DNA of 64,000 bases from Escherichia phage Ec_MI-02: the sequence record OP856590.1. One strand, given 5' to 3'. A program made the translations under genes and the position numbers. Under the pieces are notes generated by a model. It had not been told where the DNA came from. It saw only the letters and a list, made by a program, of their open reading frames with translations, and searched no databases. This document shows, piece by piece, positions 55,214-63,321 of the stretch. Every line of letters starts with the position of its first letter. Positions within the stretch are counted from its first letter, which is position 1.

Positions 55214-57271
55214 CTACATCTTGAACTTTTTAGACATTCCGTTGATGTTAACCAAAGAAGCCAAGATTTGAGAAACTTCGTTTTCCTCTTCTTTTGATTC
55301 TTCTACAAGGAATTGATTAAACCCAGCCATTGGACGAACTTCACCAGTTTCCATTAGATGATCGCCATCATATACCGATTCTTCTAATTGTTCAGAAGGA
55401 GGAACGATTGTGCCTTCGATTAGATACTTATTATAAGCAGTTTCTTTCATCATGTACGTGCTCACTTTATTAATCTTCAGCAAAATTCCACGCGGTAAAA
55501 TAACTTCAGCTTCTGATGGAAATCCTGATAAATGACCTGGAACGATAACTTTGATTCGCTCAGCCCCTTTAATTACCATACCTACGCTAGTTTCAGCATC
55601 TTCATTAGCATATGCAGAATGACTACCCATATGCATTAAATCTTCAGCATCAACAGAACCTTCTCCTTCACCAGAAAATACTGCGCCGGAATCATCTAGA
55701 GCCATATAGTTTTTACCATGCTCACCGAAGATATTTGGTTTAAGCGATGTTGATACGAAGTTCTTGAAATAGAACATTTTATTTTCAATATTATGACGTA
55801 AAGTTTTAAAAGTAACTTCTTGTCCACGATAAAGCGTAGTTCCCGGAGGAAGAACTGATCCTTTGGCAAAGGCAGAATCCATTGTCTCGATGTGTTTAAT
55901 AGCTCGTTCCATGTATTCTTCACGGGTAGAATCTGGTTTACCCAAGAGGAACGAGTTCATTTCAACATATGAATCTGCACAATAATCTTCGATTACATCA
56001 GACTCAGCCTGAGTCAGTCCTTTTGGAGTTACTTCGGTGCTTGCATATTCATATGCCTGAGCAGCAGATTCATTAATCAATTTATAAATGCCATTCATGA
56101 CAAATTGAATAATAGCTACCTTTTCGTCTGGTGTGGCTTTAGAACCTTTAACTAAATCATTGATAATTTTCTTAATAACATCAAAGCTATTAGAAATATT
56201 AATGTCAGCGAGATCGCTCAAAATTTTATCGGTTTTATAATCAAAAAATTCTTTATTCTTTAAATATTCTTGAGAACCTTGATGTGTTATATCGCTCTGC
56301 AGTCTGATAGACGGATCACGTAAACGTGCATGGGCCAATGCAATATGATTTCGGAAGCTTTCTAGTTCATAATCGCTAGATTTAAAACGAGAAGCACTTC
56401 TCATACCACCGATAGCTCCTTTTCCGAAGTTTGAACCAATCTGAATAACACCAGAGTTCATTGGTCCTTCTGCTTTATATACCGGAACTTTAGATTCAAA
56501 CTCTTGATATTTCTTGGCAGCGAAGCTATCACCCTGAAGCGAAGCATCTACAGTAGAATATTGAGCTTGTGCTGCCAATCGACGACTAATTTTAGTTTTC
56601 TGAATAACAGCTTGATCCGTGCGCTTATCATTTTCTAAAGCAATAGAAGCAGCAACAGCAACAGCTTTAGGAACAGCATTACCTGTTTTAACATCTACAT
56701 AAACATCACCAACCTTTGATTCAACTTTTGTGAATAACTCAGTTGAAATAGGAGGTACACCTGGAATGTCTTCTAAATTGGCATTTTTACGGTAAACCAT
56801 AATATATGCATACTTTTTATCATAATCCCAGATTTCCTTTAAAAGAACATATCGACCTGCTCCTTTAGTACGTACTAAACGGTCAGCAATAACTTGCATT
56901 TGACGAGCAGCTCCATTTGTTTTACTTTTTAGTACGCGGAATAGGCATGCGTCAATTTTATACTGTTTCATTGTTTGAAGAGCAGTATCAAAAACCGCAT
57001 TAATGACACCAATTGGATTTCCACCCAAGTTTTTAAGTTTAACTAATGATAGTTTCTCATTAACACCTATCATTACGATATGCATCATTTTATCGCCTGG
57101 CTTAACGTTTTTATTTGTATCACCACCAGAGGTGTATGTACAAAATCTAAATCCAGGAAGCACACTTTCTTCGCCGGCTTGAATAGCAAAAATTTGAGGT
57201 ATTTTATGCTTAGGATTTAAGTTAACAATCGGCGCCGAAGCGCCGTCAAATAATTCTGTAATAAGTTCCAT
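55214..57271 (-). CDS. Alt-like ADP-ribosyltransferase, second full-length paralogue
   Basis: 685 aa; N-terminal ~200 aa collinear with the adjacent Alt; C-terminal ART signature R (TLYRGQ), S-T-S (FVSTSL), E-x-E (EAEVILPRG); central region divergent. Confidence 0.85.
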   Translation of the reverse strand: MELITELFDGASAPIVNLNPKHKIPQIFAIQAGEESVLPGFRFCTYTSGGDTNKNVKPGDKMMHIVMIGVNEKLSLVKLKNLGGNPIGVINAVFDTALQTMKQYKIDACLFRVLKSKTNGAARQMQVIADRLVRTKGAGRYVLLKEIWDYDKKYAYIMVYRKNANLEDIPGVPPISTELFTKVESKVGDVYVDVKTGNAVPKAVAVAASIALENDKRTDQAVIQKTKISRRLAAQAQYSTVDASLQGDSFAAKKYQEFESKVPVYKAEGPMNSGVIQIGSNFGKGAIGGMRSASRFKSSDYELESFRNHIALAHARLRDPSIRLQSDITHQGSQEYLKNKEFFDYKTDKILSDLADINISNSFDVIKKIINDLVKGSKATPDEKVAIIQFVMNGIYKLINESAAQAYEYASTEVTPKGLTQAESDVIEDYCADSYVEMNSFLLGKPDSTREEYMERAIKHIETMDSAFAKGSVLPPGTTLYRGQEVTFKTLRHNIENKMFYFKNFVSTSLKPNIFGEHGKNYMALDDSGAVFSGEGEGSVDAEDLMHMGSHSAYANEDAETSVGMVIKGAERIKVIVPGHLSGFPSEAEVILPRGILLKINKVSTYMMKETAYNKYLIEGTIVPPSEQLEESVYDGDHLMETGEVRPMAGFNQFLVEESKEEENEVSQILASLVNINGMSKKFKM

Positions 57272-57274
57272 GAT

Positions 57275-59332
57275 TTATCCTTGAACGAACTTGTAAGGCA
57301 TGTTTGCAATATCTATGCAAGATGCAATAATTCCAAGAGATGATTCTACTTTTTGTTTAACATTTGATGAAACAAATGATGCAAAATCAACTCTGTCTTC
57401 TATTTCAATATCACCTGTCATTGCAACTACTTCACCGGTTTCCATTAGACGGTCACCGTCATAAATTACTGATTCGGTGAGTTCTTCTGTAGTCATAACT
57501 TCAGCTTGAATAAGCTTGTTGTTAGTTTTAGCTGTTCCATCATTGTAAGATGCGTCGGTTATTTTATTGACTTTGACCATCAATCCACGCGGCAAAATGA
57601 CTTCCATTTCATTTGAAGGCGCTAAACTTCCACCTGGTAAAACAACGTTGACTTTATCAGCCCCAGTAATAACCCATCCAATTCCAACTAAATTATCGCT
57701 AGAATTAACAAGTCCTTCATCGTTTTTATCGATAGAAATGTTTAGACGCTTTTCGTCTGGTAAAACACCCACAGCTGAATCAGTCATCCAAGTACCAAAA
57801 ATGTTTGGATATAATGATGTTGATACAAAATTTCTAAAATAAAAAACTCGATTTTTTACCAATGCTTCATATATTGAAGGTAACATTCGCTGTGAACGAT
57901 ATAAAGTAATACCTTTTGGCAGTCGATCACCATTTTTAAAGGCTGAATCTAAATTATCGATGGCTTGTTCTATTTCTGGTGCTGTTAAAATACTTGTACG
58001 CTCATCTGGATTATATAATCCCAAAAGAGCATTATTCATGTCTACATATCCTGAACCTACGTATTCACGAATTCCGCGTTTTTGTGCCGGTGTGTATTTA
58101 GATGAATCTTTATTTTCGACTATAGAATGCAATGACCATCCAACGGTAAGAGCATATCCACGTAATTCTCTTCGAATAATCTTTGTTTTTATTGCATTCC
58201 AAGAATTTTGCACTAACTCATTCGCAGCATCTTGATTTAAATGCGAATGCTTGTTAATATTTCTTTCTAACCAAGCACCTTTATATTTTTCTAAAGTATC
58301 ATCAACTATAGAAGCAATAGTTTCTAAAGTTTTTATTGAAGTAATAGATTCTTTTCGTAATCTTTCTAAAGCTTTATTTTTTATTTCTGCATTAACATCA
58401 GATTCTTTATCTTCAGGAATTATAGAAGCTTCTCTGAATGCCATTCCAGCTGTAACACTATTAAGAGCATTCTCTAATGCAAATCCTGAAGTAGAAATAA
58501 CAGTTAATTCGTTAGCATCAGAAATTAAAGGCGCGTCAGCGGGTTTATTTAATTCTGCTGCTGAAGCCTCAAATTTTTGAAACATTGGTGTTTCAAATCT
58601 AGAAGATTCTAACGATTGACTTTGTGCAATTGCTCTACGGGAAATTTTAACTTTAACGATTACAGCTTGATCAGAACGTTTATCGTTTTCTTGCGCAATA
58701 GATGCTGCAATTGCCTCATTTTTAGTTACTTGAGCTCCAGTATCTTTATTGATATAAACATCACCGACCTTCGATTCAACTTTAGTAAAGAGCTCGGTAC
58801 TAATTTCCGGAACTCCTGGAATGTCTTCTAATGATACATTTTTGCGATGTATAAGAATATATGCGTACTTTTTATCGTAATCCCAGAGTTCCTTAAGAAG
58901 GACGTATCTGCCACCTGAACGACTGCGGATAAGTCTATCAGCAATAAGTTGAATTTGACGAGCTTGACCAGCAGTTTTAGACTTAAGAATACGGAGCATA
59001 CAGGCATCAATTTTATACTGACGCATCGTCTGCATCGCAACAGTAAAAACTGAATTGATGTAATTAATTGGGCTTGGACCGAGACCTTTTAATTTAGCAA
59101 TTGAACCTTTGGCAGTTAATGTAAAAGGAACAATATGCATCATTTTATCGCCCATCTTTAAATCGCGATTAGTATCACCTCCAGATGTATAAGTACATAA
59201 ACGAAAGCCTGGTTGTTCAATTGCGTCATCAACATGAACTGAAAAAATTTGCGGTATTTTCTTCTTTGGATTTAAGTTTGTAATCGGAAGAGTAGTATCT
59301 TCGTCAAATAATTCTGTAATAAGTTCCATCAT
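57275..59332 (-). CDS. alt: Alt ADP-ribosyltransferase (packaged, RNA polymerase-modifying); likely T4 alt ortholog
   Basis: 685 aa (tandem Met start; T4 Alt about 682); ART signature LYRSQ / FVSTSL / EMEVILPRG; N-terminus MELITELFDEDTTLPITNL... matches T4 Alt as recalled. Confidence 0.9.
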   Translation of the reverse strand: MMELITELFDEDTTLPITNLNPKKKIPQIFSVHVDDAIEQPGFRLCTYTSGGDTNRDLKMGDKMMHIVPFTLTAKGSIAKLKGLGPSPINYINSVFTVAMQTMRQYKIDACMLRILKSKTAGQARQIQLIADRLIRSRSGGRYVLLKELWDYDKKYAYILIHRKNVSLEDIPGVPEISTELFTKVESKVGDVYINKDTGAQVTKNEAIAASIAQENDKRSDQAVIVKVKISRRAIAQSQSLESSRFETPMFQKFEASAAELNKPADAPLISDANELTVISTSGFALENALNSVTAGMAFREASIIPEDKESDVNAEIKNKALERLRKESITSIKTLETIASIVDDTLEKYKGAWLERNINKHSHLNQDAANELVQNSWNAIKTKIIRRELRGYALTVGWSLHSIVENKDSSKYTPAQKRGIREYVGSGYVDMNNALLGLYNPDERTSILTAPEIEQAIDNLDSAFKNGDRLPKGITLYRSQRMLPSIYEALVKNRVFYFRNFVSTSLYPNIFGTWMTDSAVGVLPDEKRLNISIDKNDEGLVNSSDNLVGIGWVITGADKVNVVLPGGSLAPSNEMEVILPRGLMVKVNKITDASYNDGTAKTNNKLIQAEVMTTEELTESVIYDGDRLMETGEVVAMTGDIEIEDRVDFASFVSSNVKQKVESSLGIIASCIDIANMPYKFVQG

Positions 59333-59365: not shown

Positions 59366-59383
59366 AAAGGCCCGAAGGCCTTT
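59366..59383 (-). terminator. UUCG-tetraloop hairpin
   Basis: Minus RNA aaaggcc-uucg-ggccuuu overlapping the stop of the 62-aa ORF. Confidence 0.5.
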
Positions 59384-59570
59384 AATAATCTATTGGTAAG
59401 AGAGTACGGTATATTTCAAACTTTGGACCTTTTTCATAGGCATCAAATGTTTCTGTGAATTTATTATAAGCATATGCATCTATAAATTCAATCATAATTT
59501 GTGATACAGAAGTAGAAACATCTCCACCTTCTTTTTGAGCCACGACAATTGTTTCTAAATAAGCTTTCAT
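59382..59570 (-). CDS. hypothetical protein
   Basis: 62-aa ORF between gene 30 and alt; start overlaps the gene 30 stop. Confidence 0.55.
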   Translation of the reverse strand: MKAYLETIVVAQKEGGDVSTSVSQIMIEFIDAYAYNKFTETFDAYEKGPKFEIYRTLLPIDY

Positions 59571-61030
59571 AGACCAGTTACCTCATGAAAATCACCAAAT
59601 ACATCCTCGAATGTATTAGCTTTAGTTTTATCTTCACGTAAACGAATCGCAATTGGAAGAAATAATTTAACGTAATCGGTGCGGCCATCAGATTTTAACC
59701 AACCATTACATTCGCATTCTAGAATTTTTCCAATATAATAATTTTGGTTTTCCATAATGCGAGTACGGTCAAGTTCATGCGATTTTACACCGGCTTTATC
59801 TTTTAAACCTGAACCAGCATTTACTTTAATTTTTCCACATTCTGATTCAAGAATAAATCCACCCGCTTTAGTAGGGTCTTTACGGTGAGGATAAATTCCT
59901 ACAATTTTTAAATCAACATCAATTACTTCTTTAAATTTATAGAGATTTTTTGAACGAGCATTTTCCCATAATCCATCGATATTTTTGAGAATAATACCTT
60001 CAAGACCTTGGTCAATATACTTTTTATAAATTACCTTAGCTTCATCTAGGTTATTTACTATCTGGTTTTCAATTAAAATTACTTTATCATATCCTGATGT
60101 CATTTGTTCTAGTTTAGAAAAACGTACATCATATTTTAAACGAAACGCTGGAAGACCGTATATTTCTACCAACGGGACATAATCCCAGACCTGAAACTTC
60201 ATGCATTGAGCTTCTTTTTCAGAAATGGTTCCCTTTAAAGATTTATTGGCGATTCCATTAGAAGTAGTACGAGATTCCGCTACTTCGGCGAATTCTTTAG
60301 CTTTACTAATTTCAGGATAAGCATCAAAAAGAAAATCTAGGCCTTCTGGTTCCTTTTTAACTTGCTCATGGTATACCAATTCGCCATCAATTAACACACC
60401 TTCTGGATGAATCTGGCGGGCTTCAGCAGTCATTTTGATTAATTCTTCCTTAAGAAGATCTAATCCTAGATATTCATTACCAGCTCGTGATAAAAGACGA
60501 ACATCATCTAATTCATCGCCTCGGACTTCAGCAAAACACCGGGCTCCATCTGCTTTTAACTGTGCAAAGGCTGGAAATTTGATATTCTTACTAATGCCTT
60601 TTTCATCATAAGAACTTGCCAGCATTTGAGGTTGTTCAGGAATTAAACCTGGCCAAACTTTGTTTGCAATAGATACTGAAGCACCGCATTCAAGGTCTCG
60701 CATCATCACTCGACGCAAAACTTCAACATCATCCTTTTTACCATCAGTGATATATCCAGTTAATTCCTCAATTGCCGCATTTCCAGTCAATTTCCGAGTA
60801 GCTAACGTGAATTCAATGAAGTCAAGCATATCGGTAATAGTCAGCATTCCAAAACTCTGGGTAGCAATACCAGGCTTAGGCCATTTCTTGATATAATACT
60901 GTAACCCACGAGAATAAGTCAGACGATATACTCGTTTAAGCAATTCGTTATCTTTATTCTTTTCAAGAATTGCTTGCTTCTGCTTAGTTGATCCAATAGA
61001 TGCTATTTCATTCAGAATTTTAAGAATCAT
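59567..61030 (-). CDS. 30: ATP-dependent DNA ligase gp30
   Basis: 487 aa, same length as T4 DNA ligase; adenylation motif KADGARC; N-terminus MILKILNEIASIGSTKQKQAILEKNKDNELLKRVYRLTYSRGLQYYIKKW matches T4 as recalled. Confidence 0.96.
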   Translation of the reverse strand: MILKILNEIASIGSTKQKQAILEKNKDNELLKRVYRLTYSRGLQYYIKKWPKPGIATQSFGMLTITDMLDFIEFTLATRKLTGNAAIEELTGYITDGKKDDVEVLRRVMMRDLECGASVSIANKVWPGLIPEQPQMLASSYDEKGISKNIKFPAFAQLKADGARCFAEVRGDELDDVRLLSRAGNEYLGLDLLKEELIKMTAEARQIHPEGVLIDGELVYHEQVKKEPEGLDFLFDAYPEISKAKEFAEVAESRTTSNGIANKSLKGTISEKEAQCMKFQVWDYVPLVEIYGLPAFRLKYDVRFSKLEQMTSGYDKVILIENQIVNNLDEAKVIYKKYIDQGLEGIILKNIDGLWENARSKNLYKFKEVIDVDLKIVGIYPHRKDPTKAGGFILESECGKIKVNAGSGLKDKAGVKSHELDRTRIMENQNYYIGKILECECNGWLKSDGRTDYVKLFLPIAIRLREDKTKANTFEDVFGDFHEVTGL

Positions 61031-61296
61031 TGTTCATCCTTCAGAGTTTGATTTACATTTCTATTATAAATCAATTCATCATTAAGCTCAGGCAAAGACT
61101 TGTGATATGTAGTTCTAACTTTATTTCCTTGCATCCAGTGCTTGACGTAAATGAAACCTTGCTCTACACATTTTTTAAAAATTCGTTCGTCTTTTTGAGC
61201 TCGGAATTCTGGATTGCATCTAAAAAATTGATTTACGTGACCGTAATCACGTGTAGTATTACCTTCATTTTCATAAATAGTATGAACAACAAACAT
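61027..61296 (-). CDS. 30.1: hypothetical protein 30.1
   Basis: 89-aa ORF immediately upstream of gene 30. Confidence 0.7.
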   Translation of the reverse strand: MFVVHTIYENEGNTTRDYGHVNQFFRCNPEFRAQKDERIFKKCVEQGFIYVKHWMQGNKVRTTYHKSLPELNDELIYNRNVNQTLKDEQ

Positions 61297-62135
61297 TAGA
61301 ATGCTCCTTGGAAAATATTATCACCACAAGTAGGTCTATTATACAAATACTCTATACCACCAGGTTTAATATAGTTCCATGTCTGAAATGGATGTGTCTG
61401 ATATGGATGATATAGATGATTATAAGGATTAAATCCAGGCGTTCTCCAGGTAGTGTTCCAAGGAAAAGAATCGTTTTTAACCATCTTCTCAATTAAATCT
61501 TTTATAGCTTTTTCACTATCAAAACTTTCTTTATTTTCCTTTGGTGAAAAAAGCTTATTTTCTATATCATTCCATGTATAAACTCGCTGGGCAGTTTTTG
61601 GAATATTGTCACGCTCTCCTCGAGCCATCCAATACACAGGAACATTTAATATTTCACTCGCATGATCGCAATGGTGAGCGAGATCGTCAATATAACAAAT
61701 TACGCTATATTTCTCTTTTGCCTTTTTGAACAACTCTTCTTTTGAAGAATCATGAACACACATCATTACTTCTGAGAAGGCACCAGGAAAAAGAGCATTC
61801 AAATTAAATTGACGATTCAACAGAGCGTCAATAGAATCACCCAATGCTGTGACAGCTACAAAATTATAATCTTCTTTTAATTTGTTAATTACACACAGGG
61901 CATCTTTATATGGAGACAAGTAACGAATAAAATCTGATCGATTGTATTTTTCAATTAGCTTGACACCGAGTTCTTCATCACAATTAAAGAGTTTACCCGG
62001 AGAAATAAATTTCTCATCTTGGATCATTTTTAAAATATGTTCTAACGGAAGATTATATTTCTGAGCAAAATAAGGAAGGCCTGATTGCCAGCTTAAACAT
62101 ACTCCATCAATATCAGTTAAAATAGTAGGCTTCAT
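61296..62135 (-). CDS. 30.2: HAD-superfamily phosphatase-like protein 30.2
   Basis: 279 aa; HAD motif I DIDGV at the N-terminus, later ICYIDD acidic motif. Confidence 0.7.
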   Translation of the reverse strand: MKPTILTDIDGVCLSWQSGLPYFAQKYNLPLEHILKMIQDEKFISPGKLFNCDEELGVKLIEKYNRSDFIRYLSPYKDALCVINKLKEDYNFVAVTALGDSIDALLNRQFNLNALFPGAFSEVMMCVHDSSKEELFKKAKEKYSVICYIDDLAHHCDHASEILNVPVYWMARGERDNIPKTAQRVYTWNDIENKLFSPKENKESFDSEKAIKDLIEKMVKNDSFPWNTTWRTPGFNPYNHLYHPYQTHPFQTWNYIKPGGIEYLYNRPTCGDNIFQGAF

Positions 62136-62596
62136 AGAGAGTCTCTTAATAGGTTTAACACATCAATAAATTCAGCTTCGGTTAATATTGTATCATCTTT
62201 TGTTAGACCATTAGCCATGCTGTGCTTCAAAACTTTTCCTTTCGAGGCTTGTAATGCATCACGAAAGCCCTTGTTTTGGAACGCTGCTTCAAAATATGCA
62301 TTTGTATATAATTCTTTCCACGCTGGAGAGTATCTTGAAAACGGAACTCCAAGCCAGAAGAGGGTCCCACGGTCCTGAGCTCTAGCATAAGACCTTCCAG
62401 CTTGTTGGGCGGCAAGCCCGGATAACCCAAATATACGACGTTGTTGTTCAATATTTTTCACCTTACACCCTTGGAGGAATCCTTCGAGACCTCCAAATTG
62501 GATACCATCCATAACAAAAGGCCATTGGGCGAAATTACTTAATGCGCATGATGGCCATCTAAAATTGCTTCTAATCTCTAACTCAGACATTTTCAA
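62132..62596 (-). CDS. 30.3: NADAR (YbiA-like) domain protein 30.3
   Basis: 154 aa; LSNFAQWPFVMDGIQFGGLEGFLQGCKV aligns by eye with the YbiA core FSNFAAWPIKVDGKTWPTSEHYFQAQKF. Confidence 0.6.
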   Translation of the reverse strand: MKMSELEIRSNFRWPSCALSNFAQWPFVMDGIQFGGLEGFLQGCKVKNIEQQRRIFGLSGLAAQQAGRSYARAQDRGTLFWLGVPFSRYSPAWKELYTNAYFEAAFQNKGFRDALQASKGKVLKHSMANGLTKDDTILTEAEFIDVLNLLRDSL

Positions 62597-62789
62597 TACT
62601 TATAATTTCAACATCAGCCCAATGACCATAGCAAGGAAGACGAAATTCAACTGGCCAGTTAGGGTCCTTTTCTAATATAATAGACTGTACTTGTGGCTCT
62701 TCATATTCATCGGTATACGGACCTTTATACGTTACTTTATATGTGACCTTAATGTACTGAATTCCAAAAATCTTATTAATTATATTCAT
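62583..62789 (-). CDS. hypothetical protein
   Basis: 68-aa ORF in an overlapping minus-strand array. Confidence 0.55.
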   Translation of the reverse strand: MNIINKIFGIQYIKVTYKVTYKGPYTDEYEEPQVQSIILEKDPNWPVEFRLPCYGHWADVEIISIENV

Positions 62790-62983: not shown

Positions 62984-63321
62984 TAGAACCTCATCTGAAA
63001 GCCATGCGATTTAACATTACCGCCGCCAATATCAGAAATATTAATTTCACGCGCAATTGAAGGGTCAATGTCAATTTCACGATTGAGTTTAGTGATAGCT
63101 AAAGTATCGCGCCCATTTACAGTACGGAACTCTAAAGGACATACTACATTAACGTAGTTTTTAATCGATTCGCTGGTAGGTTGCAAATGAGCAGGAAGGT
63201 CTTTAGGCGCTTTAGAGAAAACCACTTCACAGAAATTTTTGCGGGTGTCAAAATAAGTAGTCATAAACATAGTATTTTCCTCAGTAAGGGGCCGAAGCCC
63301 CTGTTTTATTTTAAATATCAA
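62983..63321 (-). CDS. hypothetical protein (true start probably the internal ATG near 63271)
   Basis: 112-aa track ORF; its 5' end overlaps the upstream gene and the hairpin at 63288. Confidence 0.5.
   Translation of the reverse strand: MIFKIKQGLRPLTEENTMFMTTYFDTRKNFCEVVFSKAPKDLPAHLQPTSESIKNYVNVVCPLEFRTVNGRDTLAITKLNREIDIDPSIAREINISDIGGGNVKSHGFQMRF
63288..63301 (-). other. UUCG-tetraloop hairpin (third copy of ggggccgaagcccc)
   Basis: Identical 14-mer to 2706-2719 and 42907-42920; lies between two small minus-strand genes. Confidence 0.45.

Follow-up and report, generated by a model that had tools for sequence, protein, structure and literature searches.

T4-like adfN and an adjoining gene for a putative HAD-superfamily phosphatase upstream of the DNA ligase gene of Escherichia phage Ec_MI-02

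The window analyzed here is a stretch of 64,000 nucleotides of Escherichia phage Ec_MI-02 (OP856590.1). The region shares ~98% DNA identity with T4-like (Tequatrovirus) phages, for example Shigella phages ESh16 and Sf24; at the DNA level, its matches comprise 733 phage records. Between 55 and 64 kb, the minus strand carries a paralogue of alt, then alt, alt.1, 30 (DNA ligase), 30.1, 30.2, 30.3, 30.4, 30.5, 30.6 and 30.7, which is the gene order of the T4 map. The two open reading frames singled out by the first-pass annotation (62132-62596 and 61296-62135) are present on the minus strand at these positions and correspond to T4 genes 30.3 and 30.2, respectively, each encoding a product 97% identical to the T4 protein. 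The genes considered below are the following.

62583..62789, minus strand: gene 30.4, 68 aa (phrog_2042), the last 8 nt of which overlap the start of adfN.
62132..62590, minus strand: adfN (T4 gene 30.3), 152 aa, phage-clade NADAR, predicted DNA ADP-ribosylglycohydrolase (PF08010, E 2.8e-69; 97% identity to T4 gp30.3).
61296..62135, minus strand: gene 30.2, 279 aa, HAD-superfamily phosphatase-like domain predicted at residues 1-200, with a helical C1 cap.
61027..61296, minus strand: gene 30.1 (DUF3045), 89 aa, between 30.2 and the ligase gene (PF11243, E 4.5e-62).
59567..61030, minus strand: gene 30, ATP-dependent DNA ligase (PF01068, E 3e-32; phrog_114, E 5e-170).
57275..59332, minus strand: alt, ADP-ribosyltransferase (PF03496, E 4.7e-34; phrog_802, E 1e-263), given as context and outside the AdfN mechanism.
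55214..57271, minus strand: second full-length alt paralogue, also context (42% identity to the first over 685 aa).

The true start of adfN is the ATG at 62590, which yields a 152-aa protein beginning with MSELEIRS, because the T4 annotation as well as the published expression construct and primers begin with these residues. The TTG at 62596, from which a 154-aa frame results, is merely the first possible start codon. Reading frames overlap throughout the series, by ATGTCTGA between 30.4 and 30.3, ATGA between 30.3 and 30.2, TAATG between 30.2 and 30.1, and ATGA between 30.1 and 30, and a promoter and terminator scan found no terminator-like hairpin on the minus strand. Cotranscription with the ligase gene is plausible because of these overlapping frames and the lack of such a hairpin, and the 30.4-30.3-30.2-30.1-30 run probably forms one early transcription unit. 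The scan also returned 28 promoter-like sites where 27.7 were expected, a count that does not rise above shuffled sequences and is uninformative on transcription units. The MotA-box middle-promoter pattern had no minus-strand site at 59-64 kb, and the T4 GenBank record holds no promoter features for the 30.x region.

The pair had been described as lying directly upstream of the ligase gene; this does not hold, as gene 30.1 (61027-61296) intervenes between 30.2 and gene 30. The mention of two Alt genes nearby was accurate: both are full-length paralogues of 685 aa (55214-57271 and 57275-59332) with 42% mutual identity, whereas T4 has a single full alt gene and remnants. The ligase and Alt neighbours represent conserved T4 synteny and are not partners of AdfN.

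A match to the Pfam family PF08010 (Phage_30_3) covers the whole of gp30.3 and all 138 profile positions, with a score of 231.7 bits against a cut-off of 36 bits, far above chance. The block that had suggested a NADAR-like core, ALSNFAQWPFVMDGIQFGGLEGFLQGCKV, is present, and the AlphaFold2 model of the protein, built on 41 homologues (mean pLDDT 93.4), adopts a NADAR fold. When this model was compared to the PDB using Foldseek, the only significant matches were the three NADARs of solved structure. YbiA of E. coli (2b3w) ranked best (E 2e-5, TM 0.66), ahead of the proteins of Geobacter lovleyi (8bat) and Phytophthora (8bau). The first non-NADAR match had an E value of 4. YbiA was also the only PDB protein matched by the gp30.3 family profile (E 0.0045), in an alignment that contains the LSNFA...EGFLQ..K block spotted in the first pass; SNFA...DG...E..FQ..K is common to YbiA and gp30.3. 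A single-sequence search of gp30.3 against the PDB gave chance-level matches only, gp30.3 did not match PF08719 (NADAR, DUF1768) at E values up to 0.1, and NCBIfam returned no matches for gp30.3 or gp30.2. One homologue (P0186) carries both PF08010 and PF08719. In the Pfam check proposed in the first-pass annotation, neither protein matched the NADAR or HAD profiles. This formal failure stems from gp30.3 constituting a Pfam family of its own and from the strong divergence of gp30.2; the assigned folds are not at fault.

The codons of adfN for E36, K43 and H123 are the following.

62483..62485, minus strand: codon GAA for E36, predicted catalytic glutamate of AdfN, invariant in 41 homologues.
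62462..62464, minus strand: codon AAG for K43, predicted catalytic (phosphate-binding) lysine of AdfN, at least 90% conserved in 41 homologues.
62222..62224, minus strand: codon CAC for H123, the defining residue of phage (gp30.3-type) NADARs, located where other NADARs have a last-strand Glu/Asp, invariant in alignment A2.

In NADAR proteins, the Glu and the Lys are catalytic. At the last-strand position, YbiA proteins carry Glu, DarT1-linked antitoxins carry Asp and phage gp30.3 proteins carry His (PMC11125620, PMC11543638). Judging from its predicted fold and its catalytic residues, gp30.3 of Ec_MI-02 is a member of the NADAR superfamily.

T4 gp30.3 has been renamed AdfN, for anti-DarT factor NADAR, and was shown to be a DNA ADP-ribosylglycohydrolase that is both required and sufficient to counter DarTG1 (Johannesman, Carlson and LeRoux 2024, PMC11257639). 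Deletion of adfN lowered the plating of T4 and T2 on DarTG1 ~10^4-fold, expression of AdfN rescued RB69, the E36A and K43A mutations abolished function, and purified T4 AdfN stripped ADP-ribose from DarT1-modified DNA (PMC11257639). The natural allele of RB69, a DarTG1-sensitive phage, is inactive as a frameshift deletes its last helix (PMC11257639). Furthermore, an independent study found that AdfN hydrolyses guanine-ADP-ribose in vitro but not thymine-ADP-ribose (PMC11125620), and AdfN does not act on the thymine adducts of DarT2 (PMC11257639; T4 HIDEN-SEQ study).

The Ec_MI-02 protein is identical to its T4 orthologue at 148 of 152 residues, has the same length, and its gene overlaps its neighbours 30.4 and 30.2 as in T4. 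None of the residues E36, K43 and H123 is changed, and the C-terminal helix is kept: the protein is intact to residue 152, and helix 138-151 is present in the model. The four substitutions (V47I, I104F, I125M and S127N) affect no known functional residue. By orthology, this gene is AdfN, a phage-clade NADAR, with a function transferred from the 97%-identical T4 protein. DarT1, the toxin of bacterial DarTG1, ADP-ribosylates guanine in phage DNA and so blocks its replication; in the mechanism that we propose, AdfN would cleave the N-glycosidic bond between ADP-ribose and guanine through E36, K43 and H123, and removal of ADP-ribose would restore a replicable template. The initial suggestion that the NADAR-like enzyme removes ADP-ribose as a counter-defence against DarT-type modification matches the role of T4 AdfN against DarTG1 (PMC11257639, PMC11125620). 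It is correct, but was already established for this gene family in 2024-2025. Reversal of DarT-type DNA ADP-ribosylation by a phage NADAR is a real and important counter-defence, to which this window adds one more orthologue only.

DarG1, the DarT1-associated NADAR antitoxin (BC4488 family; G. lovleyi 8bat, E. coli C7), has the fold of AdfN and likewise hydrolyses ADP-ribosyl-guanine in DNA (PMC11125620, PMC11543638). AdfN differs from DarG1 in that it has no N-terminal extension, bears His where the last strand of DarG1 has Asp, has no toxin paired with it, and fails to rescue uninfected E. coli cells from DarT1 toxicity (PMC11257639, PMC11125620). YbiA differs from AdfN by its last-strand Glu, has been linked to a riboflavin-intermediate N-glycosidase activity and to swarming, and does not protect from DarT1 in vivo (PMC11125620). 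In phages outside the T-even group, protection by AdfN is only partial, and its authors allow that modified DNA or a second phage factor may be needed (PMC11257639, PMC11125620).

The presence of two alt genes near adfN could also suggest that the main substrate of AdfN is not DarT1-modified DNA. AdfN would instead act on soluble ADP-ribose-derived immune signals, or on protein or RNA ADP-ribosylation by phage Alt, ModA and ModB. A comparative-genomics survey that preceded the experiments predicted that phage NADARs prefer soluble ADP-ribose derivatives, and noted early NADAR expression alongside ADP-ribosyltransferases in T4-like phages (PMC9503650). We consider such a main substrate very unlikely, as direct genetic and biochemical evidence obtained with T4 designates DarT1-modified DNA. 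Moreover, in the T4 transposon (HIDEN-SEQ) data, 27 of 28 insertion sites in 30.3 were tolerated on K-12 without DarTG1, hence the gene is non-essential there and any housekeeping role toward phage transferases is therefore without fitness effect in this host. Insertions in alt had no DarTG1 phenotype.

Regarding the 279-aa frame, the HAD motif I noticed at its start (MKPTILTDIDGV) was correctly read at the superfamily level, as borne out by motifs I to IV and by Foldseek. These motifs are located as follows.

62100..62114, minus strand: motif I, D8-I-D10-G-V, with the predicted nucleophile Asp and, as is typical of phosphatases, a general acid/base at Asp+2; neither D8 nor D10 varies in alignments A1 (35 sequences) and A3 (72 sequences).
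61848..61850, minus strand: motif II, T96, at least 90% conserved (few Ser), at the end of strand 91-96.
61740..61742, minus strand: motif III, K132, invariant in A1 and A3.
61683..61688, minus strand: motif IV, D150-D151, at least 90% conserved, at the end of strand 145-150.

gp30.2 matched phrog_420 (E 5e-92) and has over 100 homologues. Used alone, its sequence matched neither Pfam (E up to 1) nor NCBIfam, and its PDB sequence matches were at chance level. Among 72 diverse relatives, D8, D10, R108 and K132 never vary, and W16, N111 and D151 do so only rarely. Residues 1-200, for which the model is confident, comprise a Rossmann-like (Rossmannoid) HAD core and, inserted after motif I and before motif II, six short helices (cap helices 16-86), which form a C1 cap; the C-terminus consists of a helix (202-220) and a low-confidence tail (residues ~229-279). 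Foldseek returned 120 significant matches, the best 50 of which are all HAD enzymes, headed by the mouse cytosolic 5'(3')-deoxyribonucleotidase (E 7e-9). On the strength of this model and of the conserved motifs, gp30.2 is a real HAD-superfamily enzyme and a putative phosphatase whose motifs are catalytically intact.

The family of gp30.2 is large, with 1497 representatives at E up to 0.001 in a protein library clustered at 50% identity. The Pfam family NT5C (PF06941) matched 25 of 72 distant relatives (best E 4.2e-10) and 5 of 35 close relatives but not gp30.2 itself, and relatives also gave sub-threshold matches to PF00702 and PF13419. The gp30.2 profile matched 2jao with an E value of 0.018, and a broadened profile matched the bacterial deoxyribonucleotidase-like protein 3bwv (E 6.7e-5) and a yeast pyrimidine nucleotidase (E 1e-4). 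The 5'(3')-deoxyribonucleotidases cdN and mdN and their bacterial NT5C-like counterparts (PF06941; 2jao, 3bwv) provided the best Foldseek and profile matches. They share with gp30.2 a HAD core with a helical C1 cap, a catalytic domain of similar size, and an aromatic residue after the DxDGV motif I. In the alignment, W16 of gp30.2 (at least 90% conserved) faces the Phe found after motif I of cdN. In the structures of cdN and mdN, the aromatic residue after motif I stacks on the base. In HAD enzymes, an Asp at position +2 and a C1 cap point to a small-molecule phosphatase. gp30.2 would be a C1-capped HAD phosphatase separate from AdfN and nearest to the 5'(3')-deoxyribonucleotidase (NT5C) type, most likely dephosphorylating a substrate of the small phosphorylated nucleotide type; we give even chances to its being a nucleotidase-type phosphatase. 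A literature search found neither a publication nor an assay on gp30.2.

The first-pass annotation implied a functional link of the NADAR-like and HAD-like genes with the ligase and Alt genes. A rival reading is a two-step pathway in which the HAD phosphatase would process the ADP-ribose or phosphorylated product released by AdfN, or in which gp30.2 would be the extra T-even factor that fully activates AdfN. The ATGA overlap between 30.3 and 30.2 is consistent with such a pathway, and a helper factor was left possible by the authors of the AdfN study (PMC11257639). Furthermore, the NADAR-HAD-ligase order is found again in close relatives as well as in T4-like clades that are very distant (39% ligase identity), suggesting that the arrangement is old. 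The T4 HIDEN-SEQ data argue otherwise. Insertions in 30.3 were strongly depleted on DarTG1 (log2FC -7.25, adjusted p 0), compared to no depletion for 30.2 (71 sites, log2FC -0.12, p 0.61); the DarTG1 table was recognised by the 30.3 depletion given in the text of that study and by sheet order. Insertions in 30.1 and alt likewise had no DarTG1 phenotype, while those in 30.4 were mildly depleted. Insertions in 30.2 were tolerated at 72 of 72 sites and showed no difference between M9 and LB (log2FC -0.10, p 0.61), and gp30.2 is absent from the anti-defence genes reported in the HIDEN-SEQ paper.

A survey of loci points in the same direction. Of 60 viral loci with a gp30.2 homologue, 28 have a gene for a gp30.3-type NADAR in the 5 kb upstream of it, and there was one further, marginal match. 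After clustering at 90% identity, NADAR is found upstream in 10 of 28 gp30.2 clusters, and the 18 others have no NADAR gene within 5 kb. The six distant members of the gp30.2 family that were looked up are not beside NADAR genes, and purified AdfN is active alone in vitro (PMC11257639, PMC11125620). gp30.2 as an AdfN helper was rejected on the T4 transposon data, and we regard the two-step pathway as most improbable. The implied functional unit of AdfN, HAD protein, ligase and Alt is unsupported, and the transposon data together with the loci survey indicate that gp30.2 is not part of DarTG1 counter-defence. Altogether, AdfN is very probably a single-domain NADAR of DarTG1 counter-defence, gp30.2 a separate C1-capped HAD phosphatase, and their neighbours a matter of T4 synteny.

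The same 60 loci revealed a tighter association of gp30.2 with DNA ligase. In each of them, the gp30.2 homologue is followed by a ligase gene in the same orientation (ligase identities of 35-99%), whereas the small genes 30.1, 30.3 and 30.4 are variably present, and one gp30.2 homologue is fused to a 30.1 domain. These observations would fit a phosphatase linked to DNA ends or ligation that works with DNA ligase, either as a 3'-phosphatase making nicks ligatable or by clearing an adenylated or AMP product. The predicted structure of gp30.2 is at odds with this proposal. Among HAD enzymes, a closed helical C1 cap is the mark of phosphatases that act on small molecules; those that act on polynucleotides, Pnkp for example, lack a cap. 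The gp30.2 model has this closed cap, and its alignment with Pnkp is restricted to the core (126-131 residues); a Pnkp-like DNA-end phosphatase was judged unlikely on account of the cap. In addition, the nearest sequence families are nucleotidases, T4 ligase is essential whereas 30.2 is fully dispensable, ligase is not beside the six distant relatives looked up, and the gene order of T4-like phages may be plain inheritance. We find a ligation-linked phosphatase quite unlikely. The tight adjacency of gp30.2 and ligase could reflect either a functional tie or an inherited T4 gene order. A broader form of such a tie, also unlikely in our view, is that gp30.2, instead of being a generic nucleotidase, would assist the T4-type DNA ligase or the small protein gp30.1 as a dedicated partner and handle phosphorylated nucleotide or DNA-end species tied to ligation or to a further host defence. 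This partnership would account for the adjacency to ligase in every sampled T4-like lineage despite the dispensability of 30.2 on laboratory E. coli K-12.

Six distant relatives of gp30.2 were looked up, and none had an adjoining NADAR or ligase gene. Two were located on short, uninformative contigs. The four others had informative neighbours: ribonucleotide reductase and thymidylate synthase in one case, PhoH in another, a deoxynucleoside kinase with UDG and RecA in a third, and a Dam-like methyltransferase in the last.

Insertions in gene 30.4 were mildly depleted on DarTG1 hosts in the published T4 transposon data (log2FC -1.79, adjusted p 0.014). Because gene 30.4 (62583-62789) overlaps by 8 nt the start of adfN, the gene for the NADAR DNA ADP-ribosylglycohydrolase, this depletion is most simply read as a polar effect or as one of translational coupling. 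Alternatively, 30.4 itself might act as a helper.

We also observed a 74-aa ORF located within adfN in a different frame (62227-62451, minus strand). Its product is 92% identical to T4 'gp30.3 prime', which the T4 annotation describes as translated internally, from another reading frame. Conservation of this ORF may simply reflect constraint on adfN.

The C-terminal tail of the HAD phosphatase-like protein gp30.2 (residues about 229-279, 61296-61450 in the window) was predicted with low confidence in the structure model. Many of the aligned homologues nevertheless carry G-I-E-Y-L-x-x-(Q/R)-P-T as a shared motif close to the C-terminus, and other lineages have no tail at all. This tail could be a short docking motif. 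In one homologue, P0012, an in-frame fusion joins the HAD core to DUF3045, the domain of gp30.1 (residues 230-295, E 8e-15). This fusion hints at a functional tie between 30.2 and 30.1; P0012 was found on a metagenomic contig of 1378 bp, and the fusion may instead be artefactual, through misassembly or a frameshift.

The interval between 30.7 and 30.6 contains a tetraloop hairpin, GGGGC-UUCG-GCCCC (63287-63302, minus strand), a short distance ahead of the 30.6 ATG and its GAGG ribosome-binding site. It is of the very stable intercistronic type first described in T4. Mechanical ORF calling placed the start of 30.6 at a TTG (63321), from which translation would read through the hairpin; therefore, 30.6 probably begins at the ATG at 63270 instead, matching T4.

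Two full-length Alt ADP-ribosyltransferase paralogues of 685 aa each, sharing 42% identity, are encoded in tandem on the minus strand (55214-57271 and 57275-59332). In contrast, T4 carries a single alt gene along with alt.-1 and alt.-2, short remnants that its annotation attributes to an old partial duplication. Between alt and the ligase gene sits alt.1 (59382-59570, 62 aa), which overlaps the ligase stop codon and matches the Pfam profile PF24647, 'Phage blade protein' (E 7.5e-29).

Finally, a search of the whole window for MotA-box middle-promoter-like sites (TGCTTNA, a spacer of 11-13 nt, TANNNT) returned 13 sites versus 4.4 expected, a count reached by none of 100 shuffles. This excess fits middle transcription of the T4 type in other parts of the window.
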